Assembly (NCBI GenBank): GCA_003563895.1
Contig: PWTK01000105.1
Coordinates: forward strand, 15,129 to 79,128
Source: Syntrophomonadaceae bacterium
GTDB taxonomy: Bacteria > Bacillota > Dethiobacteria > DTU022 > UBA8154
DNA length: 64,000 nt
Reading direction: 5' to 3'
Of the stretch, positions 1 through 64,000 are shown in pieces. The notes below the pieces were generated by a model, which was not told the DNA's origin, made no database searches, and saw nothing but the letters and a program-made list of their open reading frames with translations. The position numbers and the translations under genes are program-made. How positions within the stretch are numbered: position 1 is the first letter of the stretch; each line of letters begins with the position of its first letter.

Positions 1-882
1 GCGGTTATCGGCCCTGAACCAGGTTAACTGCCTTTTGGCATAGCGCCGGGTATCCCTTTTAAAAAGCTCTACCGCCTGCTCCCAACTCCATTCTCCCTCC
101 AGGTATTTGATCATATGCCTGTAACCGAGGGATTGCATGGATTTATGCCCACTTCCGTACCCCTTTTCCAGCAGCCCTTCCACTTCCTCCAGCAGCCCTC
201 GCCGGATCATCTCCTCCACCCGACGGTTTATCCGCTCGTACAGTTTGTCCCTCCGCATATACAGGCCGAACATGTGGAGATTGTATTCGCTCTCCGCCTT
301 GCCGGCGGTCATTTCCTCCTGTTCAGAGATAGGCTTGCCGGTCTGGTAGTAATATTCCAGTGCGCGGATGATGCGCTTTAAGTCGTTCGGGTGAACCCTG
401 GATGCGGTGAGGGGATCGATTTCTGCAAGGCGGCGGTAAAGATCTTCCCCCCCTTTTAACTCCGCTTCTTTCTGCAGCCTGCGGCGCAGGCCGGGGTGGG
501 CTTTCACTCCCGTAAGCGCGTAACGGTCTACGACGGCCTTGATGTAGAAACCCGTGCCGCCCGTTAATACAGGGAGTTTTCCCCTCCGATGGATGCTTTT
601 GATGCACCTGCGGGCATCTCTCTGATAATCGTAAACCGTATAATTCACATCCGGGTCAACGACATCCAACAAGTGGTGAGGGACCCTCTCCCTCTCTTCC
701 ACGGTCGGTTTGGCTGAGCCGATATCCAGGTTGCGATATACCTGGACAGAGTCGGCCGAGACGATCTCTCCGTTCAGCCGCCTGGCCAGCTTTATAGAAA
801 GCCCGGTTTTACCCACCGCTGTTGGGCCCACCACCACCAACAGCGGTATTTTCGCCGAATTGCAGCGACCCTCCTCAGCCAT
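1..882 (-). CDS. miaA: tRNA dimethylallyltransferase MiaA; the C-terminal end runs off the window
   Basis: Minus-strand translation from the ATG at 880-882 gives MAEEGRCNSAKIPLLVVVGPTAVGKTG (P-loop). Translation of nt 1-60 gives ...RRYAKRQLTWFRADNR, the conserved MiaA C-terminal motif. There is no stop before the window edge, so the ORF is absent from the supplied track. Confidence 0.85.
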   Translation of the reverse strand, partial: MAEEGRCNSAKIPLLVVVGPTAVGKTGLSIKLARRLNGEIVSADSVQVYRNLDIGSAKPTVEERERVPHHLLDVVDPDVNYTVYDYQRDARRCIKSIHRRGKLPVLTGGTGFYIKAVVDRYALTGVKAHPGLRRRLQKEAELKGGEDLYRRLAEIDPLTASRVHPNDLKRIIRALEYYYQTGKPISEQEEMTAGKAESEYNLHMFGLYMRRDKLYERINRRVEEMIRRGLLEEVEGLLEKGYGSGHKSMQSLGYRHMIKYLEGEWSWEQAVELFKRDTRRYAKRQLTWFRADNR

Positions 883-888
883 TCATCA

Positions 889-2745
889 TCAGCCCTGCCT
901 CTTAAAATATTTTTCCATTTCCCCCCTGGCCATTTTAAACATGGTGGGGCGGCCGTGCGGGCAGTAGTACAGGTTGTGGCATTGTTCCAGGTCGTTTAAC
1001 AGGCGGTGCATTTCTTCATTCGTCAGAATTTGCCCTGCCTTGACGGAGGCCTTGCAGATGAGCTGCAGCACGGCTTCGCGTAAAAAATCTTCCGCAGTCA
1101 GCCGCCGGTCGGCCACCTGCTCAAATACATCGAGAAACATATGGGAAGAAAAGCTGCCCTTCAGGAAAAAGGGGACACTGCGGACAACAAACGTGTGCGT
1201 TCCAAATTGCTCCACCTCCAGTCCAATTTTCTCCAGCATTTCCAACCGGTCCTCCATGGCTTCGGAAACCTGGAGGGGAAGCTCCAGCGTCAGGGGGATG
1301 ATCTCCTGGCGAAAAGCGGGCGAAGGGTTTCTGTTCCCTTCGAGATATTTTTCCCACAGTATTCTTTCATGTGCGGCATGCTGGTCGACAAAGTAGATGT
1401 GCTCTTCTTCCTGGCAGATGATATAGGTGCCAAAAGCCTGTCCCAGTAGTTTTTGTGAAATGCGTCCCCCGCTTTCAAAAGCCGATATTTCATCGGACGG
1501 GGGAGCAGAAAGATTGCGGTGGGGCACACCTTCAGCGCTGCGCTTTTTTTTGTCTGCCCGTTCTGCCTCTGCAGCCTCCCCGGCAGCCTGAAAATCGGGC
1601 TCGAAAACCCTTGGGGGCAATTTCCGGATAAACTGCTGGCGGTAAGAGCTGCTTTCCTGCAGCTTTTCTGTCCCGGCGGAGGCGCCGCCGGGTTTTTGAT
1701 TCACATCATCCTTTACTTCGGGAGCGCTGCCGCTTTTCCACCCGGGAATACTGAATTGATTTTCAAAAAAATTGCTTAACGCATTTTCCAGGAAATCGCG
1801 TACTCCCGCTTCCCTGCGGAAGCGCACTTCGATCTTTGTCGGATGCACATTCACGTCCATTTCGGCGGGGTCGATCCCTAGAAATAGAAAAGCGGCTGGA
1901 TATCGCCTGGAGGTCACCACCCGCGCAAAGCTTTTGTCCAGCACCTCCCTGAACAGCCGGCTGCGAACGTATCTTCCATTTACATAATAAGCCTGATAAT
2001 TCCTGGACCTGAGCGTAAAAGAAGGGTCGGTGGCAAAGCCGAAAAGCGAAAGCCCTTCATTTTCATATTCCAGAAGCCCCAGGTGGCGGCAGAGATCTTT
2101 GCCGTATATTTGGAAGAGCACGTTGTAAAGACTGCCGTCCCCCGGGGTGTTCAAAAGGGGTCCTGACTCCCTCTCCAGTGAAAAGGAAACATCCGGCCTG
2201 GAGAGGGCCATTAATTGAAGCGTCCTTGAAACCCTTGCCGTTTCGGCCGCGGTGCCCTTTAAAAATTTCTGGCGGGCGGGTGTGTTATAGAAGAGGTCCT
2301 CTACGGTGACTTTCGTCCCCCGGTGGAAACCGACCTCTTTAAACTCTTTTTCCTGTCCCCCCTCCAGGGCGATTTGGATCCCCGTTTCTTCCTCTGTGTG
2401 TCGCGAAATCACCTTCATCTTTGAAACCGAAGCGATGCTCGGCAGTGCTTCACCCCGGAAGCCGAGGGTGCTTATCTGATCCAGGTCTTCAATGTGCCTG
2501 ATCTTGCTGGTGGCATGTCTTTCCAGGGAAAGGCGCATCTCTGACGGCTTAATGCCGCAGCCGTCATCGAGGACGGTGATCTCCCGGGCACCCCCCTTTT
2601 TCAGGGTGACTTTTATGCGCTTCGCTCCTGCATCCAGAGAGTTTTCGGCAAGTTCTTTCACCACCGACGCCGGGTTTTCGATTACCTCGCCGGCGGCAAT
2701 TTGGTTGGAGGTTTTCAGGTCAAGCATGATGATGGGCATTTGCAA
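889..2745 (-). CDS. mutL: DNA mismatch repair protein MutL
   Basis: 618-aa ORF. The N-terminus IIMLDLKTSNQIAAGEVIENPASVVKELAENSLDAGA is the GHKL ATPase signature of MutL. The gene lies immediately downstream of mutS. Confidence 0.95.
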   Translation of the reverse strand: MQMPIIMLDLKTSNQIAAGEVIENPASVVKELAENSLDAGAKRIKVTLKKGGAREITVLDDGCGIKPSEMRLSLERHATSKIRHIEDLDQISTLGFRGEALPSIASVSKMKVISRHTEEETGIQIALEGGQEKEFKEVGFHRGTKVTVEDLFYNTPARQKFLKGTAAETARVSRTLQLMALSRPDVSFSLERESGPLLNTPGDGSLYNVLFQIYGKDLCRHLGLLEYENEGLSLFGFATDPSFTLRSRNYQAYYVNGRYVRSRLFREVLDKSFARVVTSRRYPAAFLFLGIDPAEMDVNVHPTKIEVRFRREAGVRDFLENALSNFFENQFSIPGWKSGSAPEVKDDVNQKPGGASAGTEKLQESSSYRQQFIRKLPPRVFEPDFQAAGEAAEAERADKKKRSAEGVPHRNLSAPPSDEISAFESGGRISQKLLGQAFGTYIICQEEEHIYFVDQHAAHERILWEKYLEGNRNPSPAFRQEIIPLTLELPLQVSEAMEDRLEMLEKIGLEVEQFGTHTFVVRSVPFFLKGSFSSHMFLDVFEQVADRRLTAEDFLREAVLQLICKASVKAGQILTNEEMHRLLNDLEQCHNLYYCPHGRPTMFKMARGEMEKYFKRQG

Positions 2746-2771
2746 CGCTCCTTCCCTGCCGATAAGTCGTG

Positions 2772-5537
2772 CTATTGTGAAAAACGATCCCGGGAAGTAA
2801 GCTCCGCTTGCAGCTGAAAAAGCTTGTTAAGCGATTCCAGGGGAGTGATGTTAACGAGATTCAGGTTCTTGATCTCCTGCAGCACCTTTTTCTCTTTGGA
2901 AGAAAGCTCGCTTCCCGCCTTTTTCCCCGGGAATGCAAGGAAGGAAAGCTGCCCGCTGTATTCTTCCCTGAGTTTGCCGGGATCGGGAGATGAAAAGCCC
3001 TCTTCTCCCTCCCCCCCTTCCCGGCTTGAGGTGCCTCCGGCGGGGGAAGCCTGTTGCGTTTCCAGGGCTTGCAGCACTTCCTGTGCCCTCCGCATCACCC
3101 TTTCCGGCAGGCCGGCCAGGCGAGCAACATTGATCCCGTAACTCCTGTCGGCCTTTCCAGGAATCACTTTTCGCAGAAAAATGATCTCTTCTCCCTTTTC
3201 TTTGACCGCCATGGAATAATTGACAATTCCCCGGTGTATCTCTTCCATGGCGGTTAACTCGTGATAATGGGTAGAAAAGAGCACCAGCGCCCTGTTGTGG
3301 TGCAGCAGGTATTCCAGGATGGCCTGCGCCAGGCTCATACCGTCGTAGGTGCTGGTTCCCCGTCCTATTTCATCTAAAATTACCAGGCTCCGGGGAGTGG
3401 CATTTTGCAGGATGGTGGCCGTTTCTTCCATTTCCACCATAAACGTGCTCCGCCCGCCGCTCAGGTCGTCACTGGCCCCGACCCGGGCGAAGATGCGGTC
3501 AACCGGGAAAAATTCCATCGCTTCTGCGGGCACAAAACTCCCGGCCTGGGCCATGACCAAAAGCAGCGCAGCCCCCCGGCAGTACGTGCTTTTCCCGGCC
3601 ATATTGGGCCCTGTAATCAGCAGGACCCGTTCCTTTTCACTGTCAAGGGAGAGGGGATTGGGGATGAACAGCTCCCCCTGCAGCTGCTCCACCACCGGGT
3701 GGCGCCCCTCCCGTACGGCAATCCTGTCTCCATCCCCGGAAAAGGAAGGCTTGACATAATTGTTTGTAAAGGCAGCTTCTGCCAGGGATATCAGACAGTC
3801 CAGCGAGGCGACGATGCGCGACGCTTTTTGAAGTTCCGGCGTATATTGGGCCGTATCCAGGCGCAGCGCTTCGAAAAGCTCGAACTCCAGCTGTGCCAAC
3901 CTCTCTTCTGCATGTAAGATCTGAGATTCTTTTTCCTTCAGCCCTTCAGTGATAAACCGTTCTGCATTGACCAGGGTCTGCTTTCTAAGGTAGTCCTGGG
4001 GAACCAGGTGCAGGTTGGTTTTTGTAATTTCAATATAATATCCGAAAACCTTGTTGTAGCGGATTTTCAAAGATTTAATGCCGGTCCGTACCTTTTCATA
4101 TTTTTCCAGGCTGAGGATCCAATCCCTGCTGCTGCGTGCCAGCTGGCGCAGCTCATCCACTTCTTGGGAATATCCTTCTTTAAAAATACCGCCTTCTTTG
4201 ACGCTTGCAGGAGCTTCTTCACTGACGGCATCTTCTAATTTTTGTGAAAGGGTACTAAAATTGGGAAGCTGTGCCCCCAGCTCACGCAGCAAGGATGAGG
4301 CCGCTTCCTCCAGGTGGACTTCTATCAAGGGGAGGATGTACAGCGTGTTTTTTAAAGCCAGCAGATCGCGCGGGTACACGGCCCCCATGTTTACCCGGCT
4401 GCTCAACCGTTCCAGGTCGTAGGCGTTCTTTAAAAGCTCACCGATTTCAGCCCGCAGGATCTGGTTCTCTTTCAATTCTTCCAATGACTCCCAGCGACTT
4501 TCAATGGCGCATTTATCCATAAGCGGCCTCTCCAGCCATTTCCGCAGCATCCTTCCGCCCATGGCCGTTTTCGTCCTGTCCAGGATGCCCAGCAGCGAAC
4601 CTTTTTTTGCCCCTGTCCGCAGGGTTTCGGAAATCTCCAGGTTGTGAAGAGTTACCGCATCCAAAACCATGATTTCCTCTGTGGAGCCGTGATAACGAAA
4701 GCTCTGCAGGTGAGTAAGGGGCGTTCTCTGCATTTGCCTGATGTAGGCCAGGGCCATGGCGGTGGAAAACACAGCCGCAGCGCTCGAGGCCAGACCGGAT
4801 TCCTGCAACTCGGAGCGGCTAAAATGTTCCCCCAAAAGGGAAAAAGCCGTCTCCTCATCGAGGTCATTTTCCCAGGTGTGGATCGAAGAAAAACGTTCCT
4901 GTATTTGAAGCATTTTATTGATCTGTTGGTTTTTGCTTAAGCCCCGATCCAGAATGATCTCGGCCGGGCGGAGCCGAAAAAGCTCGTCGAATACTTTTTC
5001 CACCGCGTTGGACCCTTCAAAACCGTAAACTTCCACCTCCCCCGTTGACACATCCACCAGCGACAGGCCGAAGTTTTCACCTTCAATGCGCAAAGAGGCG
5101 AGGTAGTTGTTTGCGTCTTCCAGGAGCAGGTTGTCCTCGTACTTTGTTCCGGGGGTTATGATGCGGGTTATTTCCCGTTTTACCAGGCCCCTGGCCTGGC
5201 CGGGATCTTCCACCTGGTCACAGATGGCCACCTTGTACCCTTTCTCCAGCAGTCGCCCCACGTAATTCTGCAGGGAGTGAAAGGGCACCCCGGCCAGGGG
5301 AATGGCATCCTCCTTGTTGCCATCCCTGGAAGTGAGCGCGATTTCCAGTTCCCTGGCTGCAGTGACAGCGTCCTCAAAAAATAATTCGTAGAAGTCTCCC
5401 ACCCTAAAAAAAAGAATGGCATCAGGATAGTTTTCTTTGACCTGTTTGAACTGTTTCATCATCGGAGTTAAATGCTCCAAGTCAACCACCCCTGGCATGC
5501 CGGATTCGCGCAAAGACGAATACGATTTTTGTATCAT
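2772..5537 (-). CDS. mutS: DNA mismatch repair protein MutS
   Basis: 921-aa ORF with the Walker A motif GPNMAGKSTY and the mismatch-binding N-terminus (FFRVGDFYELF). Confidence 0.95.
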   Translation of the reverse strand: MIQKSYSSLRESGMPGVVDLEHLTPMMKQFKQVKENYPDAILFFRVGDFYELFFEDAVTAARELEIALTSRDGNKEDAIPLAGVPFHSLQNYVGRLLEKGYKVAICDQVEDPGQARGLVKREITRIITPGTKYEDNLLLEDANNYLASLRIEGENFGLSLVDVSTGEVEVYGFEGSNAVEKVFDELFRLRPAEIILDRGLSKNQQINKMLQIQERFSSIHTWENDLDEETAFSLLGEHFSRSELQESGLASSAAAVFSTAMALAYIRQMQRTPLTHLQSFRYHGSTEEIMVLDAVTLHNLEISETLRTGAKKGSLLGILDRTKTAMGGRMLRKWLERPLMDKCAIESRWESLEELKENQILRAEIGELLKNAYDLERLSSRVNMGAVYPRDLLALKNTLYILPLIEVHLEEAASSLLRELGAQLPNFSTLSQKLEDAVSEEAPASVKEGGIFKEGYSQEVDELRQLARSSRDWILSLEKYEKVRTGIKSLKIRYNKVFGYYIEITKTNLHLVPQDYLRKQTLVNAERFITEGLKEKESQILHAEERLAQLEFELFEALRLDTAQYTPELQKASRIVASLDCLISLAEAAFTNNYVKPSFSGDGDRIAVREGRHPVVEQLQGELFIPNPLSLDSEKERVLLITGPNMAGKSTYCRGAALLLVMAQAGSFVPAEAMEFFPVDRIFARVGASDDLSGGRSTFMVEMEETATILQNATPRSLVILDEIGRGTSTYDGMSLAQAILEYLLHHNRALVLFSTHYHELTAMEEIHRGIVNYSMAVKEKGEEIIFLRKVIPGKADRSYGINVARLAGLPERVMRRAQEVLQALETQQASPAGGTSSREGGEGEEGFSSPDPGKLREEYSGQLSFLAFPGKKAGSELSSKEKKVLQEIKNLNLVNITPLESLNKLFQLQAELTSRDRFSQ

Positions 5538-49985: not shown

Positions 49986-50276
49986 ACTGCCTCCCATAAA
50001 AAAATCTCCTTCGGAAACATATTTGGTCCCTTGTTCGGGCAGCCCCGCCGGCACCCCGAAAAGGGACCCGGTCGGGTTCGGCATCCATTTGCAGCCGGTT
50101 CCTGTTTTCCAGGGAAAAGCGGCTGCAGCGCCCTGCCGCTTCCGACAGCTATATATTATATCACCTGCAGCATGCCGAGTCAAGTTTTACGAACAAAAGT
50201 TCTGTATTATTATTGGGGAAAACAACAGTACGCTTTAATGAACCTTGCGTGCTAATCCTGCGAGGTATTGACAGGG

Positions 50277-52026: not shown

Positions 52027-53111
52027 CCTCGCTGCACCCCGCCTTCAAACATCCGGATGAGCTTCTTTTCATTCGGCGAAAAGATGACCCCTTTTTCGGT
52101 GATGACGGCCGTGATCAACCCGGCGGGGGTTACATCAAAAGCCGGGTTCCGGGCGGAAGCGCCTTCCGGCGCCAGCCTGCGCCCCCCCAGGGAAAGCACC
52201 TCTTTTCCATCGCGCTCTTCTATCTCAATGTCCCATCCCGTCCCGGCGGAAAGATCCACGGTGGACAGCGGGGCTGCTACATAAAAGGGGATATTGTGTT
52301 CCCCGGCCAGCAGGGCCAGCGGGTAGGTGCCGATTTTGTTGGCCGCGTCCCCGTTGGCTGCGACGCGGTCGGCGCCGGTAATGATCCCGTCTACCTCACC
52401 CCGGCTGATAAAAAAGCCGGCCGCCCCGTCTGCAATAAGCTGCACCGGGATCCCTTCTTTTTGCAGTTCCCAGCAGGTGAGGCGGGAACCCTGGAGCAGC
52501 GGTCGGGTTTCACCGGCCAGGACGTTTTTAACCCTCCCCTGCTGAAAGGCGCTGCGGATCACGCCCAGGGCAGTGCCGTAACCGGCAGTTGCCAGGGCGC
52601 CGGCATTGCAGTGGGTTAGCAGGGTGCTCCCTTCTGCGATAAGCGCCGCACCGTTGGCGCCGATTTGTTTGTTGGTCTCGATGTCTTCCTCATAGATCCC
52701 CAGCGCCTCGGCTTCCAGGAGCTGCAGCACCGTCCCGGTTGGCGCTCTTTTGGCTTCCGAGAGTTTCCGCAGCATCCGATCCACACCCCAGGACAGATTT
52801 ACCGCAGTGGGGCGGGAAGCCTTCAATTTAGTGCCGGCCTCCTCCATGGCCTGCCAGAACCCTTCCTGCGGGGCATTATCTTCCTCCAGGTTAACGGGAA
52901 GTCGATCAAGGTAGTTCCGGGCCGCCAGCACCATGCCAAAGGCGGCAGACACGCCGATAGCCGGAGCACCCCTGACAACCATGTCCTTGATACAGTCACG
53001 CAGCTCGTCCGGGGTGCTGCAGGCCAGGTATCGCTCTTCTTCAGGCAAAAGCCGCTGATCGAGAAGTTTCAGCACACCGTCCTCCCAGATGATGGGACGG
53101 ATTTCTTCCAT
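52023..53111 (-). CDS. mtnA: S-methyl-5-thioribose-1-phosphate isomerase
   Basis: 362 aa, eIF2B-like fold (MtnA). Confidence 0.9.
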   Translation of the reverse strand: MEEIRPIIWEDGVLKLLDQRLLPEEERYLACSTPDELRDCIKDMVVRGAPAIGVSAAFGMVLAARNYLDRLPVNLEEDNAPQEGFWQAMEEAGTKLKASRPTAVNLSWGVDRMLRKLSEAKRAPTGTVLQLLEAEALGIYEEDIETNKQIGANGAALIAEGSTLLTHCNAGALATAGYGTALGVIRSAFQQGRVKNVLAGETRPLLQGSRLTCWELQKEGIPVQLIADGAAGFFISRGEVDGIITGADRVAANGDAANKIGTYPLALLAGEHNIPFYVAAPLSTVDLSAGTGWDIEIEERDGKEVLSLGGRRLAPEGASARNPAFDVTPAGLITAVITEKGVIFSPNEKKLIRMFEGGVQRG

Positions 53112-53142
53112 CTCTCATGCCTCCCACCGGGAATGTTTCGGG

Positions 53143-53934
53143 CTATTCCTCCAGGGTAATATCTTCCTTTTCCCAGCAACTGCAGCTTCGTGTCTGCGGA
53201 AGAACTGCCAGCACTTCCAGGAACAATTCCCTGATCAGGTTGATTTTTTCCTTGACCACGTCGATCACTTCTCTATGGGTTAACGGGTGCGGGGAGATTC
53301 CGGCGGCCAGGTTGGTCACCATCGAGAGGGTGGCGTAGCAGAGGCCCGCTTCCCGGGCCAGGGTGACTTCCGGCACACTGGTCATTCCCACCACGTCCGC
53401 CCCCCAGCTGCTGAAGGCCTGTATTTCAGCAGGCGTTTCGTAACGCGGGCCTTCCGTGCAGATATACGTGCCCCCGTTTACGAAGGGAATTCCTTTCCCG
53501 CCCAGGACGTTGCTGAGATGATTCCTCAACTGAGGACAGTAGGGCTCAGTGAAATCCGTGTGATATACCGGGCCGTCATCCCCGTCGTAAAAGGTGTGTT
53601 GGCGATTCCTGGTCAGATCAATGAACTGGTCGACAATGACCAGGGTTCCCTGGGTAATGCTTTCCTTTATTGAGCCCACGGCCGTGGTGGAAAGGATCCG
53701 CTGGATGCCCAGTTCCTTCAAAGCAGCGATGTTTGCCCGGTAGTTCACCCTGTGGGGAGGCAGCTGATGGCGGTCGCCGTGACGCGGCATAAAGGCCACG
53801 GTTTTATCTCCATATGTGCCGATGATCATTTTTGCCCTGCCGTATTTTGTGTCCAGGGTCATTTCACGGGAATCTTCCAGCAGCCGGGGGTGGTAATACC
53901 CTGTTCCCCCTATAATTGCCAGGTTAACGTCCAT
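53143..53934 (-). CDS. mtnP: S-methyl-5'-thioadenosine phosphorylase
   Basis: PNP/MTAP family. Start trimmed to MDVNLAIIGGTGYY. Confidence 0.85.
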   Translation of the reverse strand: MDVNLAIIGGTGYYHPRLLEDSREMTLDTKYGRAKMIIGTYGDKTVAFMPRHGDRHQLPPHRVNYRANIAALKELGIQRILSTTAVGSIKESITQGTLVIVDQFIDLTRNRQHTFYDGDDGPVYHTDFTEPYCPQLRNHLSNVLGGKGIPFVNGGTYICTEGPRYETPAEIQAFSSWGADVVGMTSVPEVTLAREAGLCYATLSMVTNLAAGISPHPLTHREVIDVVKEKINLIRELFLEVLAVLPQTRSCSCWEKEDITLEE

Positions 53935-53993
53935 GTTTCCAAAATCCTTCGATTTGTTGAGCAGGGGTCCCCCTCCTTTCTCCTCTGAATTGG

Positions 53994-55241
53994 TCAGTCT
54001 ATCTCCCAACTATCCAGGTACGCCTTCTGCTCGTCGGTGAGGCGGTCAATTTCAATATTCATCGCTTTCAGCTTCAGCTTGGCCACCTCGCTGTCCAGGT
54101 CCTGGGGGACAGGCAGGACCCTGTTGGCCAGTTCTCCCCTGTTGTCCAGCAGATATTTCAAAGCCAGGACCTGGAGCGCAAAGGACATGTCCATGATCTC
54201 TGCAGGGTGCCCATCAGCAGCGGCCAGGTTCACCAGCCGGCCTTCACCCAGCAGGTAAAGGCGGCGGCCGTCGGGAAGCGCATATGCGTCTACGTCTTTT
54301 CTGACACGCCTGTAACCGCCGCTCAGGGCGACCAGGGCTTCTTTGTCGATTTCCACATCAAAGTGCCCCGCGTTGGAAAGCACGGCCTGGTCTTTCATTG
54401 CTTCAAAATGCTCCCTGGTGAGAACTTTGCTGCACCCCGTGACGGTTACGAAAAAATCGCCTGCTGATGCGGCCTTTTGGAGCGGCATTACCTCGAAACC
54501 GTCCATGTGTGCTTCCAGGGACTTGATCGGGTCAACTTCACATACGATCACCCTTGCTCCCAACCCCCTCGCCCTCATGGCCACCCCTTTGCCGCACCAG
54601 CCGTAGCCGATAACGACCACATCTTTTCCCGCCACAATGAGGTTGGTGGCTCGCATAATTCCATCCCAGGTAGACTGCCCTGTTCCGTAGCGATTATCAA
54701 AAAGGTGCTTGCATAGGGCATCGTTCACCGCCATCACGGGAAAGCCCAGCACCCCTTCTTTCTCCATGGCCCGCAGCCGTATCAGGCCGGTGGTCGTCTC
54801 CTCTGAACCCCCGATTATGCGGGGCAGCTGCTCCCGGTATTTTGTGTGTATGAAAGAAACCAGATCTCCGCCGTCATCGATGAGAAGCTCCGGGGAAAAA
54901 TTGGCAGCCTTCTCCAGGTGCTCCCGGTATTCCTCCCTGGTTGCATTGTACCAGGCGTGCACCTCCAGGCCCTCTTCGACCAGGGCGGAAGCAACGTCAT
55001 CCTGCGTTGAAAGAGGATTGCTTCCCGTAACGACCACCCCGGCACCGGCTTCTTTTAACACCCGGCACATGTAGGCCGTTTTTGCTTCCAGGTGAAGGCA
55101 AACGGCAATACGTAAACCCCGAAAGGGCGTGCTCTTTCGAAATGACTCTTCCAAACCCTTTAACACCGGCATGTGTTCACGGACCCAATCCATTTTTTCC
55201 TTTCCCTGCGGCGCCAGGCTTCTTTCTCTAATAGAACTCAA
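53994..55241 (-). CDS. second adenosylhomocysteinase paralog, short archaeal type (S-inosyl-homocysteine hydrolase candidate)
   Basis: 415 aa, SAHH fold without the bacterial insertion. It is encoded next to mtnP and near the mtaD-like deaminase. Confidence 0.8.
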   Translation of the reverse strand: MSSIRERSLAPQGKEKMDWVREHMPVLKGLEESFRKSTPFRGLRIAVCLHLEAKTAYMCRVLKEAGAGVVVTGSNPLSTQDDVASALVEEGLEVHAWYNATREEYREHLEKAANFSPELLIDDGGDLVSFIHTKYREQLPRIIGGSEETTTGLIRLRAMEKEGVLGFPVMAVNDALCKHLFDNRYGTGQSTWDGIMRATNLIVAGKDVVVIGYGWCGKGVAMRARGLGARVIVCEVDPIKSLEAHMDGFEVMPLQKAASAGDFFVTVTGCSKVLTREHFEAMKDQAVLSNAGHFDVEIDKEALVALSGGYRRVRKDVDAYALPDGRRLYLLGEGRLVNLAAADGHPAEIMDMSFALQVLALKYLLDNRGELANRVLPVPQDLDSEVAKLKLKAMNIEIDRLTDEQKAYLDSWEID

Positions 55242-55640: not shown

Positions 55641-56237
55641 TTATTTTTTTGCTTCGTCGAGGCGGGCGTTTACATCCTCCCAGTTGACCAGGTTCCACCA
55701 GGCCTCGATAAAGGCGGCCTTCTTGTTTTGATACTGCAGGTAATAGGCATGCTCCCAGAGATCGAGGACCAACAGGGGAATTGCCCCCCACTGGGTCAGG
55801 TTCTGATGCTTTTCCGACGTGAGGATTTCCAGCTTGTCAAACTGGGGGTTCCAGCAGAGCAGGGTCCAACCCGAGCCTTCCACGGCCGCCGCGGCGGCGG
55901 TAAACTGCTCTTTAAAGGCGGGAAAGCCCCTGAAATCGGCTTTGATCTGTTGGGCAACGGCTCCTTCTGCCGGTCCCCCGCCTTCAGGCTTCATATTGGT
56001 CCAGAAGATGCTGTGCAGGATGTGCCCGGAGCCGTGAAAGGCGAGCTCTCTTTCCCAGTGCTTGACCAGGGAGAAGTCATTGTTTTCCCGAGCCTCAACC
56101 AATTTGGCTTCGGCCTTGTTCAAACCGTCAACGTAGGCCTTATGGTGCGCGTCGTGATGCAGGCGGAGGGTCCGTTCCTCGTAATAGGGTTCCAGGGCAT
56201 CATACGCATAGGGCAGATCAGGAAGCTCATGTTTCAT
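55641..56237 (-). CDS. sodA: Fe/Mn superoxide dismutase
   Basis: 198 aa; DLWEHAYY signature. Confidence 0.95.
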   Translation of the reverse strand: MKHELPDLPYAYDALEPYYEERTLRLHHDAHHKAYVDGLNKAEAKLVEARENNDFSLVKHWERELAFHGSGHILHSIFWTNMKPEGGGPAEGAVAQQIKADFRGFPAFKEQFTAAAAAVEGSGWTLLCWNPQFDKLEILTSEKHQNLTQWGAIPLLVLDLWEHAYYLQYQNKKAAFIEAWWNLVNWEDVNARLDEAKK

Positions 56238-56540
56238 TTGCGATCAACCTCCCAGAGATAGGATAATACCATTATAGCATACCTCGTGCCTGCCTGAAAC
56301 ATCTATCGGCAGCCCCTGGCGCGCAGGCGCTCACAGCAGCAGTCGCGACAAGGCGCCGCAGCAGTACACAATAATTATGCGCACCCGGACGGCAGGGAAA
56401 ACCGGCACACAGTTTAAATCTGCCAAGCGGTTGATGGGCAGCAGAAAACAGGAAGAGCAGAACACACCAGCGATACACATGGCGAAAAAAAGGGTTTATG
56501 CAGTCTCCTTTGGGAGCAAGCCATAAACCCTTCCATTCCG

Positions 56541-56655
56541 CTAAGTGCTCTAAAACTTAATTACCGTGAGGTATTCTTTTACACGTAAAGTCATACCCTT
56601 TACCCTGAAACTCATTGCTGCAAACAGGTCACATTCGGAACTCTATTTCTGCCGG
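56541..56655. repeat. conserved ~110-bp intergenic element, copy 2
   Basis: See copy 1 at 47281-47392. It lies between the stop of the LysM gene and the sodA promoter. Confidence 0.5.
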
Positions 56656-56719
56656 AGAGCACCAAGGCAGAGGAAAAAGAAGCAAATTGGCACGGGCCGC
56701 AGCACACCGGCCTGCCGGT

Positions 56720-57610
56720 TTACAACCCGGCGGCTCTTCTGACTGCAGCCTGGTGAGTTGGGCTGATGCTGTTGTTGTTATGGGTCCTGCTGTTTTTAAA
56801 ATGGATACAAATGTGACCGGGAAAATTATTGTTGTGGATGAACTGGCCGCCGTGTGGCATGCCGTTCATGGAAGCAGCGATATGCCTCCCCCCAACGCTG
56901 ACAATGATGGCCCTGGGGGTCCAGCTCCACGATCCGCCGTAAACTCTCTTCATGGTGGCGGTATCCGCTGCTGTTAGGGGTTCAGTATCAGCATGATTGG
57001 TCCCACCCCTGCGCTTAACCTTAAAGCTCAGACCGGTGGATACGTCTGTAACGGTGGCGATGGTACCTCTGGTATAAATATTTCTCGCCTGGGCCCAATC
57101 CAAATATTCGCCACGGTTAACGGTCTTCTGGCGGGAGGTGAGCTGCCCGTCACTCTGACCTGCCTCAGTTTGGGAGCCGGCGGAACCAGGGATGGTCAAA
57201 ACCTGGCCCGGATGGATGAGGCTCGAGGTGAGGTTGTTGGCAGACATGAGGTCACTAACGGTTATGCTGTTGTTATGGGCGATTCCCCAAAGAGAGTCCC
57301 CGCGCCGAACTTCATATGTAGCGGTTGTTTCTTCCGGGTTTGCCTCGCTTTGAGAACTTTCTTCCGGATTTGCCTCAGTTTGGGAGCCGGCGGAACCGGG
57401 GATGGTCAAAACCTGGCCCGGACGGATGAGGCTCGAGGTGAGGTTGTTGGCAGACATGAGGTCACTAACGGTTATGCTGTTGTTATGGGCGATTCGCCAA
57501 AGAGAGTCCCCCCTCCGAACTTCATATGTACTGGCTGCGGCTGTCGCTGATAGAGCGAACAAAACAAAAATTATGGCAACCACCAGAGAGACCATCAATT
57601 TTTTAGACAT
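56720..57610 (-). CDS. secreted protein with two LysM domains and a C-terminal putative cell-wall-hydrolase domain
   Basis: Signal-like N-terminus, then two near-identical LysM repeats (YEVRRGDSLW...GQVLTIPGS). The repeats form a ~190-bp tandem duplication at the DNA level. Confidence 0.7.
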   Translation of the reverse strand: MSKKLMVSLVVAIIFVLFALSATAAASTYEVRRGDSLWRIAHNNSITVSDLMSANNLTSSLIRPGQVLTIPGSAGSQTEANPEESSQSEANPEETTATYEVRRGDSLWGIAHNNSITVSDLMSANNLTSSLIHPGQVLTIPGSAGSQTEAGQSDGQLTSRQKTVNRGEYLDWAQARNIYTRGTIATVTDVSTGLSFKVKRRGGTNHADTEPLTAADTATMKRVYGGSWSWTPRAIIVSVGGRHIAASMNGMPHGGQFIHNNNFPGHICIHFKNSRTHNNNSISPTHQAAVRRAAGL

Positions 57611-57818
57611 GAACCAATCGCCCCTTTCTCAGTTTGCTGGTACGCAGTTTGGATTCATTAACAAAGTATTAAAATATTCATTTAATATATATACTACATA
57701 AAAAGCCCTTCCCCTTTTTTTCTGTTAATTTTTTTTAAGAATTTTATATATTTTTAATCACTGCGTAATTATTTTCCAAAAACAAACCAAAGCTTTTCCC
57801 TAGCTTTTCCCTGACAAG

Positions 57819-57848
57819 CAAAAAACCGGCATCTCCACTGGATGCCGG
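57819..57848 (-). terminator. Rho-independent terminator (second, distal) of the tRNA operon
   Basis: Minus-strand sense CCGGCATC-cagtgga-GATGCCGG followed by TTTTTTG. Confidence 0.6.
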
Positions 57849-57903
57849 TGCTTTCTGGGTGCGGGAGAAGGACTTGAGCCTCCGCACCCTATACGCGCAC
57901 AGG

Positions 57904-57936
57904 ATAAAAAAATGAAGGGCTTGTATAAGCCCCTTC
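57904..57936 (-). terminator. Rho-independent terminator (first) of the tRNA operon
   Basis: Minus-strand sense GAAGGGGCTTATACAAGCCCTTC followed by ATTTTTTTAT. Confidence 0.65.
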
Positions 57937-57964
57937 CGGGAGCCACAAGCCCTTATTTTATGCT

Positions 57965-58049
57965 GGTGCGAGAGAAGGGATTTGAACCCCCACGGGCTAC
58001 TGCCCACTAGGTCCTGAACCTAGCGCGTCTGCCTTTCCGCCACTCTCGC
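57965..58049 (-). tRNA. tRNA-Leu (CAG)
   Basis: Minus-strand sense GCGAGAGTGGCGGAAAGGC...CTAGGTTCAGGACCTAG...long variable arm...CTCTCGCACCA. Anticodon loop TTCAGGA. Confidence 0.85.
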
Positions 58050-58052
58050 ACG

Positions 58053-58128
58053 TGGTGAGCCATCCAGGACTCGAACCTGGGACACCCGGATTAAAAGTCC
58101 GGTGCTCTTCCAACTGAGCTAATGGCCC
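58053..58128 (-). tRNA. tRNA-Lys (TTT)
   Basis: Minus-strand sense GGGCCATTAGCTCAGTTGGAAGAGCACCGGACTTTTAATCCGG...GGATGGCTCACCA. Confidence 0.9.
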
Positions 58129-58172
58129 GTCTATTGAGGCAAGGGGTGAAGCCCCTTCCCTGGACATGGTTG

Positions 58173-58260
58173 TGGTGGAGAGGACTGGATTTGAACCAGT
58201 GAAGGCGCACGCCAGCAGATTTACAGTCTGCCCCCTTTGGCCAAACTTGGGTACCTCTCC
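58173..58260 (-). tRNA. tRNA-Tyr (GTA)
   Basis: Minus-strand sense GGAGAGGTACCCAAGTTTGGCCAAAGGGGGCAGACTGTAAATCTGC...long variable arm...CTCTCCACCA. Confidence 0.85.
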
Positions 58261-58348
58261 ACGATTTTTTGTGCAATTTCAAAACTGACGGTCAGGAAGA
58301 CATCTCACATCTACCGCGCTGTCTTTCCCCCCCGTCAGCGCAACATAT

Positions 58349-58377
58349 AGTATAACCTATTTTCACTTTGTCGTCAA
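58349..58377 (-). promoter_or_regulatory. sigma-70-type promoter of the tRNA-Tyr-Lys-Leu operon
   Basis: Minus-strand sense TTGACG, a 17-nt spacer, then TATACT. It lies about 80 nt upstream of tRNA-Tyr. Confidence 0.6.
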
Positions 58378-58405
58378 CACCCGCCAACTTAAAATTTTCG
58401 CCCTC

Positions 58406-59389
58406 TCAGCCGGCCTGCCGACTGTGATCTTCTCCTTGGCCGAGGGGGATTTTCAGCCTTACGCTGGTCCCTTTTCCGGGCCCTGTGTGAATGAACAGAT
58501 CACCGCCAACCAAAGCCGCTCTCTCTTTCATGCCGAAAATGCCCAGGCTCTCCCGTTTGCCCATCTCTTCAATGAGCGAAAAACCTTTGCCGTCATCTTC
58601 CACTACGGCTTCCAGGTAATCGTTGTTGCAGCGGAGCCATACTTTAAAATTTCCGGCCCCGGAATGACGTATGGCGTTGGTGAGAGCTTCCTGTACAACG
58701 CGATATACGGCAGTCTCGACAACCGGATTATGCCTGATTTTCTTGCATTCTTCCAGGTCAAACTCGATATCAACACCGAGGTGGCTGGAAAGCTCACTGA
58801 CATAGCGCTTTATGGCCGCATCCAATCCAAATTCATCGAGAGCGCTCGGGCGCAGCTCGAAAGAAATGCGCTGTATTTCTTCCAGGGTCCTTTGGATAGT
58901 ATCCCTCAAAGCCCCGCTCATCTCTTTTACCTGGTCGAGATCGTCGGATTGCTGAATCAACTTTAAGCCCAGCATCAGGCTGGTCAGCGATTGGCTGGTT
59001 TCATCGTGAAGCTCCCTGGCAATTCGCTTTCTTTCATCTTCCTGGCTGGTAATCACTTTTTCCAGCAAGTGAGATCGCATTTTTTCTTTTTCTCGCAGTT
59101 CCTGCCGCAGCTCCCGGTTTTGCTGCCGGCTTTCCCGAAATCTCTTTATGATGTGGTAGTTCCCCAAAAGCACCAGGCCGATACAAAAGGCGGCAATAAA
59201 CAGAATGACCACTGTGATTTCGCTGCCAATCCCCGCCAGGGGCCCTTCAGGGGTGCTTATAGAGGCGTAAGCGGCGGTCAGGACGAGAATAAGCGCTGCG
59301 CATAATAATCCAAAAAAAAGCGTTTGGTAGGTTGCGGGTTTCTTCTCCACCAGTGCATCCCCCCTCGACCGGAAAGAAAATGCCTTCAT
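58406..59389 (-). CDS. sensor histidine kinase, NarL/DegS-type
   Basis: 327 aa. Two transmembrane segments, an H-box (IARELHDETSQSL) and a HATPase_c domain. Confidence 0.9.
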   Translation of the reverse strand: MKAFSFRSRGDALVEKKPATYQTLFFGLLCAALILVLTAAYASISTPEGPLAGIGSEITVVILFIAAFCIGLVLLGNYHIIKRFRESRQQNRELRQELREKEKMRSHLLEKVITSQEDERKRIARELHDETSQSLTSLMLGLKLIQQSDDLDQVKEMSGALRDTIQRTLEEIQRISFELRPSALDEFGLDAAIKRYVSELSSHLGVDIEFDLEECKKIRHNPVVETAVYRVVQEALTNAIRHSGAGNFKVWLRCNNDYLEAVVEDDGKGFSLIEEMGKRESLGIFGMKERAALVGGDLFIHTGPGKGTSVRLKIPLGQGEDHSRQAG

Positions 59390-59699
59390 TCATCCGGCGC
59401 ATGATGACGGAAGGGACCTCAACATTGCATAAAACATAGTGATTATTGATTTTGTTAAGGTACCCTTTAAACATGATGCGCTGGTTAAATAGATTCCAGT
59501 GCCACAGGTGCGGGTATGAGCATATTTACGAGATTGTAACCAAGAAAATGTCCCTTCTTGAGTTAATCGGATGACCACATAAAACATTGCATAAAACATT
59601 ACCGGTTTATTCGACATTTATGTCTCATTCCCTCTTAAAAACCCTATATATTCGCAATAAGGCTCCGTATCAACCCCCATATTTACGGGTATTGCCCGG

Positions 59700-59731
59700 A
59701 TAAAAAAACCTCCCATGCGGGAATGGGGAGG
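59700..59731 (-). terminator. Rho-independent terminator after the response regulator gene
   Basis: Minus-strand sense CCCTCCCCAT-tcccgc-ATGGGAGG followed by TTTTTTTAT. Confidence 0.6.
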
Positions 59732-59800
59732 GAACCGAAGCATAAGCGCCTGCAGCCGGGCAAGCACCCGAGCCGTGACTATGTTGGGATGCAGGAAACA

Positions 59801-60487
59801 CTACTCAGGAACCTCTTCCTCATTTAATTCTTCAAGAAGCCCGTGCCTTATGGCATACTTGACCAGGTCTGAGCGGTAGTTTACATTCAACTTCTCACGG
59901 ATGCGGGCCTTGTGGCTCTCCACGGTCTTAATGCTGACCACTAGTTTGTCGGCTATTTGCTTATTGGTGTAGCCCAAGGCTACCAGCCTGAGGACCTCTT
60001 TTTCCCGTCCGCTGAGGAGCTTCCCTTTTTCTTCTTCGCTTCCTTGTCTTCCCGGGCGATATCCTTCATAATAGCTCTTCAGCACCCCCCTGGTCAGTGA
60101 AGTGTCCAGAAACACTTCGTCACGGTTAACGGCCCTGATGGCAGCCAGCAGTTCAATGTCGGCCGCTTTTTTTATTATATACCCATCACCACCGCTCTCC
60201 ATGACCGTGTGGAGATATCCTTCGTCATCATACATGGTAAGAACCAGTACTTTAATGTGAGGGTGGATCTGTTTCAGCTCGGGGATGAGCTCCAACCCGT
60301 TCATGTCATCGAGAGACAGGTCCAGCAGGACAACCCGGGGAGAAAGCTCGGCAGCCAGCTGCAGCGCCTTTTTGCCGCTTCCCGTTTCCCCCACCACTTC
60401 TATGTCCTTTTGGGCATCCAAAAGCATTTTTAACCCGTTGCGCAAAACGGTGTGATCGTCCACAATAAGTACTGTGATCAAATCCAT
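59801..60487 (-). CDS. NarL/LuxR-family response regulator (REC + HTH_LuxR)
   Basis: 228 aa with the phospho-acceptor region LLDLSLDDMNG and a C-terminal LuxR helix-turn-helix. Confidence 0.9.
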   Translation of the reverse strand: MDLITVLIVDDHTVLRNGLKMLLDAQKDIEVVGETGSGKKALQLAAELSPRVVLLDLSLDDMNGLELIPELKQIHPHIKVLVLTMYDDEGYLHTVMESGGDGYIIKKAADIELLAAIRAVNRDEVFLDTSLTRGVLKSYYEGYRPGRQGSEEEKGKLLSGREKEVLRLVALGYTNKQIADKLVVSIKTVESHKARIREKLNVNYRSDLVKYAIRHGLLEELNEEEVPE

Positions 60488-60562
60488 GGCCCGTACCGTC
60501 CTTTTCCCGCTTTAAATCACTGTCATTATACAGTATTTACCCCGAACTGACAACAGGCAGGC

Positions 60563-60607
60563 AGAAAAATAAACGGGAGCCAGGGTTAAAACCCTGACTC
60601 CCGTTTT
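60563..60607 (-). terminator. Rho-independent terminator after fdnH
   Basis: Minus-strand sense AAACGGGAG-TCAGGGTTTTAACCCTGG-CTCCCGTTT followed by ATTTTTCT. Confidence 0.7.
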
Positions 60608-60662
60608 CGCGTCGGTATCGGCTGTGTTGCCTGGTCCAGTTTTTCTCTGCAGCCAAAGCTTC

Positions 60663-61454
60663 TTATTTTGCCGCCTTTTCGTTCTCCTTTTTGACCTTTT
60701 CCCTGCGGAAGGTATACCAGCTGCCCAGCATGCCTGCCACCAGCCCAGCCATGGCAAGCGTCTTCAGGGGGCGCATTGCCACTTTCCAGAGGTGAGTGGT
60801 GTAAGACACGGTCGGGCTCACAGGGAGGCCGTACATATCGGGGCTGTCAGCAAGCACGTAGATTACCCCCATGCCGCCCAGCTCATCCACGCCGTAAAGC
60901 TGGGCATTGGCAACGCCTCTTTCCTGCAGCTCGGCTACCCGCGCTTCCGCTTCGGCGATTTTTTCATCAGCTGTGCCAAATGTTACTGCTCCTGAAGGGC
61001 AGGCCTTGGAACAGGCCGTGGCATAACCGGCCGCCACGCGGTGCAGGCAGAAGTTGCACTTGTAGGCCTTTTCATCAACCTCTGGGCCCCTCGGGATTTC
61101 GAAGGGGCAGGCGCCGGTGCAGGCACCGCAGGCGATGCACTCTTCATGGTTGATGATAACGGCGCCTGTATCGGTCCGGCTGATGGCATCTACGGGGCAG
61201 ATTTCCATGCAGCCCGCTTCCGTACAGTGCATGCAGGAGAAGAAGTTAAAGTACCACTTCACTTCACCATTGTTTGCGTGCTCGTTGAACTTGACGCGAC
61301 TCCAGGTAACAAAATCTAAGTCGGCGGGATTCTCATAGGAGCCTGTAAATTCGGTTTCCACTGCAGGCAGCTGGTTCCACTGCTTGCATGCCACCTGGCA
61401 GCCCTTACAGGCCATACACTTGGTTACATCTATCAACCTAACATTATTTGCCAT
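60663..61454 (-). CDS. fdnH: formate dehydrogenase-N-type iron-sulfur (beta) subunit with a C-terminal membrane anchor
   Basis: 263 aa. Four ferredoxin-type Cys clusters and one C-terminal transmembrane helix. Its stop is immediately adjacent to the alpha-subunit stop codon region (61455). Confidence 0.8.
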   Translation of the reverse strand: MANNVRLIDVTKCMACKGCQVACKQWNQLPAVETEFTGSYENPADLDFVTWSRVKFNEHANNGEVKWYFNFFSCMHCTEAGCMEICPVDAISRTDTGAVIINHEECIACGACTGACPFEIPRGPEVDEKAYKCNFCLHRVAAGYATACSKACPSGAVTFGTADEKIAEAEARVAELQERGVANAQLYGVDELGGMGVIYVLADSPDMYGLPVSPTVSYTTHLWKVAMRPLKTLAMAGLVAGMLGSWYTFRREKVKKENEKAAK

Positions 61455-64000
61455 TTAGCCCGCCCTCCTTATATTGCAGATAAACGACTTGAACTCCGGA
61501 ATGGTTGTGTTGGCACAACCGATGGTGGGGGTCAGGTCATTGGCGGAAGCTCCGCTGGAAAGACCCTTGAAACCCCAGTGCCAGGGCATACCTACGATTT
61601 CCTTCTCCTCGCCGTTAATCATCAAAGGCTTAACGCGCGGAGTCACTGCTACTTTACACTGAATGGTGCCTCTTTTGCTCTCAATCTCCACCATGTCGCC
61701 GTTTTCAACCCCGATTTCTGCAGCCAGGGAGGGGCTGATTTCACAGAACATTTCCGGCATCGCTTCGACCAACCAGGGGTTGTTCCGGGTCATAATCCCG
61801 GTCTGGTAGTGCTCTGTCAGGCGGTATGTGGTGGCGATGTACGGATAGTCCGCGCTTTCCCCCCGGTCTTCAGGGTACCATACCTTACAGACAGGGTTGA
61901 ACTGCACATCAGACATCCTGTTGGCAGTTATGCTCTCCCAGGGCTCGTAGTGCTCGGGGAAGGGGCCGTCTACCATGGTTCCAGTTAACCCTGCAAATAA
62001 TCTTGACTGCAGTTCCGGGGTCATGATGAAGGGTTTATCGGCTGTTTCTTCCGGGGGTACGTTGGCATTAAAATCAGGAACGTCTATTGTTACCCATTCA
62101 TTGTCTTCCCACCTGAACAGCGCCTTGTCAGGGTTCCAGGGGTTCCCTTCTGCATCACAGGAGCAGCGGTTGTAGACGATTCTGCGGTTGGCGGGCCAGG
62201 CGAATGACCAGTCATGGTTGAGGCCGAGGCCTTCTGTTTCCCTGGTGCGGTTCTTGCAGGCAGGGTCGGCCTCGTCCGCATAGAAACCGGTATAAATCCA
62301 GCTCCCAGCAGCCACTTCGCCGTCATCACTTCCGGTAATGTCGCCAAATCCAGTAGCCAGCTCGCCGGTGTCCCAGTAGAACCCGTTGATCTCCATGCAT
62401 ACTTTGGGAATATCCACTTCGTCGTCGCCGTAATCCCAGTACATGTCCACGATGGGTCCGGGGAATGCTCCGCCTTCTTCTTCGTAGAGGTTCCTGATTG
62501 CATGGAAGAGTTGGTTGACAATCCAGTAGTCCGGCTTGGCCTCCCCGGGAGGATCCTGGGCTTTGTGTCTCCACTGGATCCAGCGGCCGGAGTTGGTAAT
62601 GGTGCCTTCTTTTTCAAAGTGCATGCAGGCAGGCAGCAGGAACACTTCCGTGTCTACTTCTTCGGGGTTCATATCGGGAGCTTTCCAGAAGGCTGCCGTT
62701 TCATTTTCATAAATGTCAGCGCAAACCAGCCAATCCAGCTCCGCCTGGGCCCTGCGCTTTCTTATGGTATTGGCTCCACCCACCACCGGGTTGTCGGCAA
62801 AGCAGAACAGGCCTTTGATTTCCCCCTTGGCCATATAGGTGTAATAGGCAACAGACGAGCGGTTTTTGTCCAGCCGGGGCAGGTAATCAAAGTGGAAGTC
62901 GTTTTCTTCTGTGGCATTGTCACCCCAGAACGCTTTCAGCATCGAGGCCATAAACTTCGGTCGGTTGACCCAGTACCCGGAATCTGGTGCAGCAGCGTTA
63001 TAGGCTGCCAAATCCTGCCCATCACTGGGCATGGGCATATACCCGGTTACGATATGGAAGAGCTGGCCCATATCGCAAGCGCCCTGCACGTTGGACTGGC
63101 CCCGCTGGGCGTTCACACCGCCACCGGCGATGCCAACATTGCCCAGCAGCAGCTGAAGGATGGCGCAGCTGCGCACGTTTTGTGAACCGTGGGTAAACTG
63201 GGTAAGTCCCATGGCGTAGGAGATATTTCCGGCTTTGCCGGGTTCACCGGTGCTGCAGAACATCTCTGCCACTTCCACGAACTTGTCCTCGGGGCAGCCG
63301 GTGATTTCGCTGACGGTCTGCACGTTGTAGCGGGCATAGTGATTCTTGAACAGCTGCCACACGCAGTTGGAATCCTGCAGGGTTTCATCTTTTAAGATAT
63401 TGCCCTCTTCATCCCTCTGGTAGTCCCAGCTTGTCCTGTCGTAGGACTTCTGCCCGTCACCGAGGTCCGGTGCATCCTGAACGCCGGTGAACAACCCGTC
63501 GCTGTAACCAAAATCAGGGTTGATTAAACTGGAGGCATTGGTGAACAGTTTTACATACTCTTCATGATACTTGTTGTTTTCAATGGCATAGTTGATCAAC
63601 CCGGAGAAAAACGCTACATTGGTGCCGGGACGGATTGGCGCATACAGGTCGGAAACAGCAGAAGTGCGGGTGAAGCGGGGGTCCACTGAAATCAGCTTGG
63701 CACCGTTGTCCAGAGCCGCTTGAATCCACTTCATGGAAATGGGGTGGTTCTCAACGGTGTTTCCACCGATGTTCATGATTACATCGGAGTTGCGGTAATC
63801 GATCCAGTGGTTGGTCATAACGCCTCTACCAAATGAGTTGCCCAAACCTTGGACAGTTGAGGAGTGTCACAACCGGGCGCAGTGGTCCATATTGACAATG
63901 CCATTGGCGGCAACAAACTTTCTAAAGAGATAGTTCTCTTCGTTATTGCACATGGCACTGCCCACCCAGGCCAGGGCTTCGCAGCGGTTCGCCACCAGCC
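61455..64000 (-). CDS. fdnG: selenocysteine-containing molybdopterin formate dehydrogenase alpha subunit (FdnG/FdoG-like); N-terminus lies beyond the window
   Basis: The 796-aa track ORF starts at a TTG, but the frame stays open upstream through an in-frame TGA (63867-63869). The surrounding translation ...[29 protein letters not shown]...VDPRFTRT matches the Sec region of FdnG/FdhF-type enzymes (recalled motif ARV-U-HGPTV...FGRGAMTNHW). Confidence 0.85.
63867..63869 (-). other. in-frame UGA selenocysteine codon of fdnG
   Basis: Its position aligns with the catalytic Sec of formate dehydrogenases. A candidate SECIS hairpin GUCCAA-GGU-UUGGGC begins about 13 nt downstream. Confidence 0.7.

Follow-up and report, generated by a model that had tools for sequence, protein, structure and literature searches.

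Does the in-frame TGA in the formate dehydrogenase gene at the end of this stretch of DNA stop translation, or is it read as selenocysteine (Sec)? The stretch, hereafter the window, comprises 64,000 nucleotides (nt) of contig PWTK01000105.1 from a Syntrophomonadaceae bacterium (assembly GCA_003563895.1). Positions 61455..64000 of its minus strand hold the 3' 84% of a gene for a formate dehydrogenase (FDH) alpha subunit of the fdnG/fdhA type, which carries molybdenum (Mo) or tungsten (W) bound by bis-pyranopterin guanine dinucleotide (bis-PGD). The gene was identified by its matches to TIGR01553 and to structures in the PDB. We put the probability at roughly 0.93 that the TGA is a genuine selenocysteine codon of an exported FdnG/FdhA-family enzyme. 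Among bacterial selenoproteins, FdhA was the first to become known and is the most widespread (PMC13188914). The present case is a textbook example, and its correct description is an annotation fix rather than a discovery. Its main value lies in that correction, and it leaves knowledge of selenoproteins, of their recoding elements, and of formate dehydrogenases unchanged.

To delineate the reading frame, we followed it in both directions from the called open reading frame (ORF). The gene ends with a stop codon at 61455-61457, and its 5' end is cut off by the window edge at 64000. The mechanical ORF (61455..63845, minus strand) begins with a TTG. Upstream of this codon the frame is open to base 63998, with the TGA at 63869-63867 (minus strand) as the sole interruption, and no further stop or frameshift occurs across the 848 codons within the window. 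The presumed TTG start is a Leu codon that lies within the 3' arm of the hairpin described below. In the full-length protein the UGA (63867..63869) would specify Sec207, as judged from its alignment with a known Sec residue and from its conservation, and the codon directly 3' of it (63864-63866, minus strand) encodes His208. Ordinary stops in the window are most often TGA, which ends 18 of its 43 long ORFs. The genetic code is therefore standard, and reading through this particular TGA would require a dedicated recoding signal. A scan of the window for further ORFs interrupted by TGA yielded none that, judged by eye, resembled a selenoprotein gene.

Homology searches were performed with the 847-residue alpha translation, in which the stop was replaced by Cys. 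It aligned end to end with alpha subunits of solved structures, of which the best match was Desulfovibrio vulgaris FdhAB (6sdr_A/9qm0_A; E 5.5e-237). Matches to D. gigas 1H0H (E 5e-227) and Escherichia coli FdnG (1kqf_A; E 1.7e-225) followed. Against TIGR01553, the profile for formate dehydrogenase-N subunit alpha, the translation scored 980.1 bits (cutoff 814.2) even though about 160 N-terminal residues are lacking. The UGA aligned exactly with X (Sec192) in the D. vulgaris segment ARIXHSPTV, and the next residue, His, corresponded to His193. A conserved active-site Arg is encoded at 63102..63104 (minus strand) within the motif VNAQRGQSNVQG, and in the alignment its D. vulgaris FdhAB counterpart is R441, within VNALRGESNVQG. 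The alpha subunit thus contains the Sec/Cys position of the metal ligand, the His that follows it, and the conserved Arg. An original prediction, made from the letters of the window, had extended the frame past the TTG at 63845 and through the TGA at 63867-69, had quoted the translation around the UGA, and had placed that codon in the Sec active-site segment of FdnG/FdhF-type enzymes. The window reads identically at each of these points, and the alignment with Sec192 and the adjacent His bears out the assignment.

To assess the conservation of the TGA, relatives were collected by scanning one genome per GTDB species. This yielded 80 loci with 46-84% protein identity, mostly from metagenome-assembled genomes of Bacillota from soda lakes and digesters, of Syntrophomonadaceae, or of Dethiobacter. 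Conservation was counted over 82 gene copies, drawn from the 80 loci plus the window. TGA occupied the Sec column in 81 of the 82 copies. The remaining copy, L016, has TGT (Cys), and this variant has neither the GGU nor the hairpin described below. The in-frame UGA is thus conserved, with Cys found at the same column in one homologue. In one relative (L015, Firmicutes UBA2296), a second paralogue of the Sec type lies at L015:19844, about 10 kb from the first, with its own TGA and GGU-loop hairpin.

Look-ups of identical products for the beta subunit and the response regulator gave no match, and a 60-mer taken from the window end had no exact counterpart among the metagenome contigs. A search for homologues returned P0001, a 787-amino-acid (aa) protein with 100% identity, encoded on contig L081 from a Kulunda soda-lake sediment metagenome (JGI 3300000362). 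This contig is 99.92% identical to window positions 56130-64000, runs 681 nt beyond the window edge, and has the same TGA. These data bear on the alternative of a pseudogene, or of a Cys-type (TGT/TGC) enzyme into which assembly or sequencing introduced a false TGA. A single base separates TGA from either Cys codon, L016 does carry TGT, and Sec machinery was not seen within the window, all of which would suit such an explanation. It is, however, hard to reconcile with the same TGA on the independent contig, with its recurrence in homologous copies from unrelated assemblies, and with a frame that shows no other stop or frameshift. Moreover, a hairpin under synonymous-site constraint is conserved in the TGA copies only. 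We consider a defective or misread gene to be scarcely credible.

The proposed recoding signal is a bacterial selenocysteine insertion sequence (SECIS) inside the coding sequence (63823..63869, minus strand). Its assignment draws on RNA folding, the conserved hairpin, the consensus for bacterial SECIS (bSECIS) elements, and a weak match to the Rfam family SECIS_3. In the predicted structure the lower stem pairs CCUCAACU (63862-63855) with GGUAGAGG (63830-63823), forming seven of eight pairs, with an A.A mismatch at the remaining position. In the upper stem, UGUCCAA (63855-63849) and UUGGGCA (63845-63839) come together around an apical GGU loop (63848-63846). U63855 is written in both stems, its partner being G63830 in one case and A63839 in the other, where it forms the seventh pair of the upper hairpin. 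The core of that hairpin, GUCCAA (63854-63849)-GGU-UUGGGC (63845-63840), had been predicted about 13 nt 3' of the UGA, and it indeed starts at the thirteenth nucleotide. The bSECIS consensus calls for a loop of 3-9 nt with G in its first two positions, an upper stem of 4-16 base pairs (bp), a distance of 16-37 nt from the UGA, and a minimum free energy (MFE) of at most -7.5 kcal/mol (PMC13188914). With a 3-nt GGU loop, a 7-bp stem, a spacing of 18 nt, and an MFE of -12.3 kcal/mol for 51 nt (UGA plus 48 nt), the window element falls within each of these ranges. The upper hairpin alone has -6.8 kcal/mol. A 7-bp stem arises at this position in only 2% of synonymous recodings, the 23-nt hairpin by itself has a z-score of -2.2, and the hairpin codons CAA, UUG, GUC, and GGU are minority codons in the alpha gene. 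Altogether, the evidence for the hairpin from this single sequence is modest.

Comparison among relatives was more informative. Of the 81 TGA copies, 80 use GGT as the Gly codon of the loop, and T is invariant at its third base, whereas the nearby GRG motif has two Gly codons whose third bases change freely. Among these 81 copies, 78 (96%) form four or more contiguous pairs that abut a loop starting at this same GGU nucleotide, 18 nt past the UGA. As a positional control, the measure was repeated within these genes at a further 1,595 positions, where on average 9.8% and at most 84% of copies had at least four pairs. The native position ranked first of all 1,596. The stem occurs in three registers. 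Members of the window clade, which encode Val-Gln-Gly-Leu-Gly, form GUCCAA/UUGGGC around a 3-nt loop, and most other relatives, which encode Val-Ala-Gly-Leu-Gly/Ala, form a 5- or 6-nt GGUCU(N) loop. In the majority structure 74.6% of cells pair, compared to 41-54% in slid controls. Compensatory changes were also apparent. At pair 24-37, 36 rows have C-G, 15 have U-A, and one has G-C. Further changes give A-U in L025, U-A in L030, and, in place of the window's U-A, G-C in L004. On these comparisons of sequence, we regard the evidence that the hairpin and the TGA are retained together beyond chance as decisive.

The same data speak to the identity of the inserted residue. Selenium incorporation into this particular protein is deduced from sequence, which leaves room for a UGA read through with Cys or Trp, by near-cognate decoding or under a variant code. 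Low-level misinsertion of these residues is known to occur at E. coli Sec codons under selenium limitation. Two findings speak against this account. The frequent use of TGA as an ordinary stop within the window indicates a standard code, and a GGU loop conserved at a constant distance from the UGA is the hallmark of decoding that depends on SelB. We give insertion of Cys or Trp almost no weight compared with a selenocysteine codon.

Several observations nevertheless weigh against a selenocysteine codon in this gene. Folds of the window sequence are unremarkable, with z-scores of -0.23 over 63 nt and -0.45 over 51 nt, and because these are not significant for the window element, the single-sequence z-scores were not taken as support. 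The predicted element is also weaker than those of the relatives (-12.3 vs about -22 kcal/mol). At gathering thresholds, Rfam returned tRNAs only over the window. In a local search SECIS_3 (RF01989) was the sole Rfam match over the element (E 0.0034), spanning the UGA to +56 in the correct orientation with several non-canonical pairs. It scored 23.9 bits where the gathering score is 63, so we do not file the element as a SECIS_3 member, and most of the likeness comes from the coding sequences being homologous. No meaningful fixed-column consensus structure emerged from RNAalifold on 81 sequences. This result follows from the stem occupying different registers in different clades, and the per-sequence register analysis and positional control were used in its place.

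The Sec machinery provides a further point on that side. None of selA, selB, selD, or the gene for tRNA-Sec was found within the 64-kb window. ARAGORN detected no tRNA-SeC there, and the Rfam gathering scan gave no tRNA-Sec. SelA, SelB, and SelD were absent among ten ambiguous window ORFs searched against Pfam and among the other ORFs judged by eye from their N-termini (MutS/L, MiaB, LeuCD, ProABC, and similar). In favour of a Sec codon, a tRNA-SeC is encoded at most 10 kb from the homologue in just two of the relatives, both of them distant. A Sec codon in the alpha subunit would imply that the organism needs selenium and carries this machinery.

Contig L081 supplied the part of the gene that lies beyond the window. 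The full alpha subunit reconstructed from it has 1,010 aa with Sec207, such that the window starts at about residue 164. Its N-terminus, MKISRRNFLWLSGAAITGSLAAKLGCAPPEEPEEP...CPVCGVGCG..., combines a signal for twin-arginine translocation (Tat), MKISRRNFLW..., with a 4Fe-4S motif of the CxxCxxxC...C type, and the N-terminal fragment matches positions 1-193 of the TIGR01553 profile. An RRxF/L motif was present in all relatives with complete N-termini. That the gene would run past the window end had been foreseen, together with the suggestion to look for a Tat signal in the missing part, and the 99.92%-identical contig provided both. At the end of the Tat signal (L081:195-300) the sequence reads ...SLAAKLGC, followed by a Pro/Glu-rich linker, APPEEPEEPVVDPDVPVEE. 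The KLGC tetrapeptide also occurs in L001-L008, L012, L014, L065, and L076, and is absent from L009-L011 and L013. In a monoderm host it may act, through Cys26, as a lipoprotein-type anchor on the Tat-exported alpha subunit. Lys at the -3 position is atypical of a lipobox.

Gene calls on L081 reveal how such a gene is lost. The JGI annotation breaks alpha at the TGA into a 206-aa product that ends there (195..815) and one of 787 aa (864..3227). Likewise, the 120 best homologues from the database include about 110 C-terminal fragments of 756-818 aa that lack the Fe4S4 domain. Together, the split calls and fragmentary homologues demonstrate that ORF callers miss the gene, as the original prediction had claimed. 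The fragments could alternatively be taken at face value, with translation stopping at the UGA and restarting at the TTG at 63845 or at the ATG of MTNHW to give a two-piece enzyme, as both the L081 calls and most homologue entries would have it. However, the stop would then fall exactly on the metal ligand, and the split would lose this ligand and the next 8-16 residues, including the catalytic His. The candidate restart codons also lie inside strongly conserved coding sequence and the hairpin, and full-length homologue entries of about 1,000 aa do exist, one of which (P0030) bears the name formate dehydrogenase-N subunit alpha. A two-piece enzyme is therefore very unlikely. With the UGA taken as a selenocysteine codon, public calls divide both this gene and the majority of its homologues, leaving pieces of about 200 and 790 aa and hiding a complete selenium-dependent FDH in soda-lake anaerobes.

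The second subunit is encoded immediately downstream. An FdnH-like iron-sulfur beta subunit of 263 aa (60663..61454, minus strand) was assigned from its match to 1kqf_B, its Cys motifs, and its hydropathy. Its start codon abuts the alpha stop. The best solved match was E. coli FdnH (1KQF_B; E 3.5e-64), with an alignment reaching the FdnH anchor region. The soluble D. vulgaris beta subunit ranked behind it (2e-41). Sixteen Cys residues are arranged in four motifs for four 4Fe-4S clusters, and the Fer4_11 profile was also matched. Toward the C-terminus, a hydrophobic helix (LKTLAMAGLVAGMLGSWYTF) of moderate hydropathy (Kyte-Doolittle 1.32) precedes a basic tail (RREKVKKENEKAAK). The position of this tail fits an orientation in which the catalytic part would face outside and the tail inside. 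Scores remained below curated cutoffs for both TIGR01582 (247.5 vs 334.7 bits) and PF09163 (20.1 vs 22.1 bits). The structural match and hydrophobic helix favour the earlier call of an FdnH-like beta subunit with a C-terminal anchor, with the sub-cutoff family scores and the moderate hydropathy on the other side.

No gene for a cytochrome b (FdnI) gamma subunit follows beta. The operon ends at an intrinsic terminator (60571..60606, minus strand), a 16-bp stem with nine G-C pairs followed by a T run, located 57 nt past the beta stop. Beyond it lies a sigma-70-like promoter, TTGTCA-17-TATAAT (60525..60553, minus strand; 11 of 12 matches), ahead of a response-regulator gene, which would be transcribed separately. 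That no cytochrome b gene comes after beta is thus explained by the strong terminator that closes the operon there. The absence of a gamma subunit gene after beta had likewise been noted beforehand, and this arrangement agrees with it.

Taken together with knowledge of SelB and of E. coli fdhF and fdnG, these features suggest how the enzyme would be made and used. During translation, the SECIS (63869-63823) would present its GGU-initiated apical loop 18 nt past the UGA, where SelB carrying Sec-tRNA(Sec) would bind the loop and decode the UGA. Sec207 would serve as the metal ligand, with His208 and the Arg in the active site and a 4Fe-4S cluster in the N-terminal region. The alpha-beta dimer would be exported in folded form by the Tat pathway and tethered to the outside of the cell membrane by the C-terminal helix of beta. 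Formate and CO2 would be interconverted outside the cell, with electrons passing through five 4Fe-4S clusters to a partner encoded outside the operon. By analogy, we infer SelB/SECIS-mediated insertion, the topology, the catalytic direction, and the use of Mo or W.

Known enzymes resemble this system in different respects. E. coli FdnGHI (1KQF) likewise has a Tat-exported alpha subunit whose active site pairs Sec with His and whose gene contains the SECIS. Its beta subunit, like that of the window, has four 4Fe-4S motifs, and it ends in a membrane helix of the kind predicted here. In the E. coli SECIS, GGU is the eighth codon after the UGA. Unlike E. coli, the window operon has no FdnI cytochrome b after beta, its host is apparently a monoderm of the Bacillota type, and its beta subunit scores below the TIGR01582 cutoff. 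The W/Sec-FdhAB of D. vulgaris (6SDR, 9QM0) shares the aligned Sec192, His193, and Arg441 and the two-gene alpha-beta layout without a dedicated cytochrome b. In contrast, its beta subunit is soluble (214-236 aa) and has no C-terminal anchor, whereas that of the window has an FdnH-like helix.

Further architectural parallels come from soda-lake syntrophs. 'Candidatus Contubernalis alkaliaceticus' (HUE98_01270/01275) and 'Ca. Syntrophonatronum acetioxidans' have an alpha subunit with a Tat signal and a beta subunit with one C-terminal transmembrane (TM) helix, and extracellular formate conversion has been proposed for their two-subunit FDH (PMC10608574; PMC6295475). Selenocysteine is mentioned nowhere in the text of either paper. 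The window enzyme appears to share this two-subunit architecture, and the 'Ca. Contubernalis' formate dehydrogenase-N alpha entry P0030 (1,015 aa), from a different species, is 62% identical to its alpha subunit. Extracellular conversion of formate and CO2 is thought to support syntrophic acetate oxidation in soda-lake anaerobes. A more far-reaching proposal, which we put forward tentatively and consider doubtful, is that the soda-lake clade has a distinct two-subunit, gamma-less extracellular selenoenzyme. It would be doubly tethered, by the beta helix and possibly by a lipidated alpha Cys (...AAKLGC/APPEEPEEP), and would serve an as yet unnamed electron partner in interspecies formate transfer. 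Under the same proposal its SECIS would have been rebuilt after a change from Val-Ala-Gly-Leu to Val-Gln-Gly-Leu, in which the stem may have moved three nucleotides and the loop shrunk to a GGU triloop with the GGU-UGA distance kept.

Gene order around the operon was compared among the relatives. The closest ones share the order FdhE-like, alpha, beta, and response regulator. A 38-aa fragment upstream of alpha on L081 gave a BLASTP E of 0.01, which did not establish it as FdhE. In the window, the NarL/LuxR-family response regulator (59801..60487, minus strand) comes directly after fdhB, as it does in L003, L004, L006, L007, and L011. It may regulate the fdh operon, and a membrane histidine kinase of the HisKA_3 type (58406..59389, minus strand) is likely its partner. 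More distant relatives have a soluble protein of about 438 aa, a membrane protein with 7-10 helices, or a small 3-helix protein after beta, which suggests that the third partner of this FDH family varies by lineage. The ~438-aa protein starts with VEVKxFxGGxxIPHYKSFTE and has no predicted TM helices (L016, L017, L022, L025, L030, L032, and many others). The 7-10-TM proteins have about 390-400 aa, and the 3-TM protein (L069) has 204 aa.

Further along the minus strand, a cluster of tRNA-Tyr, tRNA-Lys, and tRNA-Leu genes occupies 57964-58260. Syntenic clusters in L004, L011, L013, and L014 read Thr-Tyr-Lys-Leu, and neither ARAGORN nor Rfam found a tRNA-Thr in the 145-nt gap at 58261-58405 of the window. 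Inside the gene for a secreted LysM-domain protein (56720-57610, minus strand), a direct repeat of some 160 nt with 96.9% identity duplicates a LysM module and its linker. Positions 45858-55241 form a neighbourhood for methylthioadenosine and S-adenosylhomocysteine (AdoHcy) salvage. Two of its genes (47398-48846 and 53994-55241) resemble AdoHcy hydrolase, and it also includes a PfkB kinase and MtnA-, MtnP-, and SurE-like genes judged by eye from their N-termini. An AdoHcy hydrolase gene also lies downstream of fdh in L004, indicating that synteny reaches beyond the fdh operon. Finally, an RtcB RNA ligase ORF (43681-45279, minus strand) matches its Pfam family from residue 102 onward. The mechanical ORF has about 100 extra N-terminal codons, and the true start is probably further downstream.

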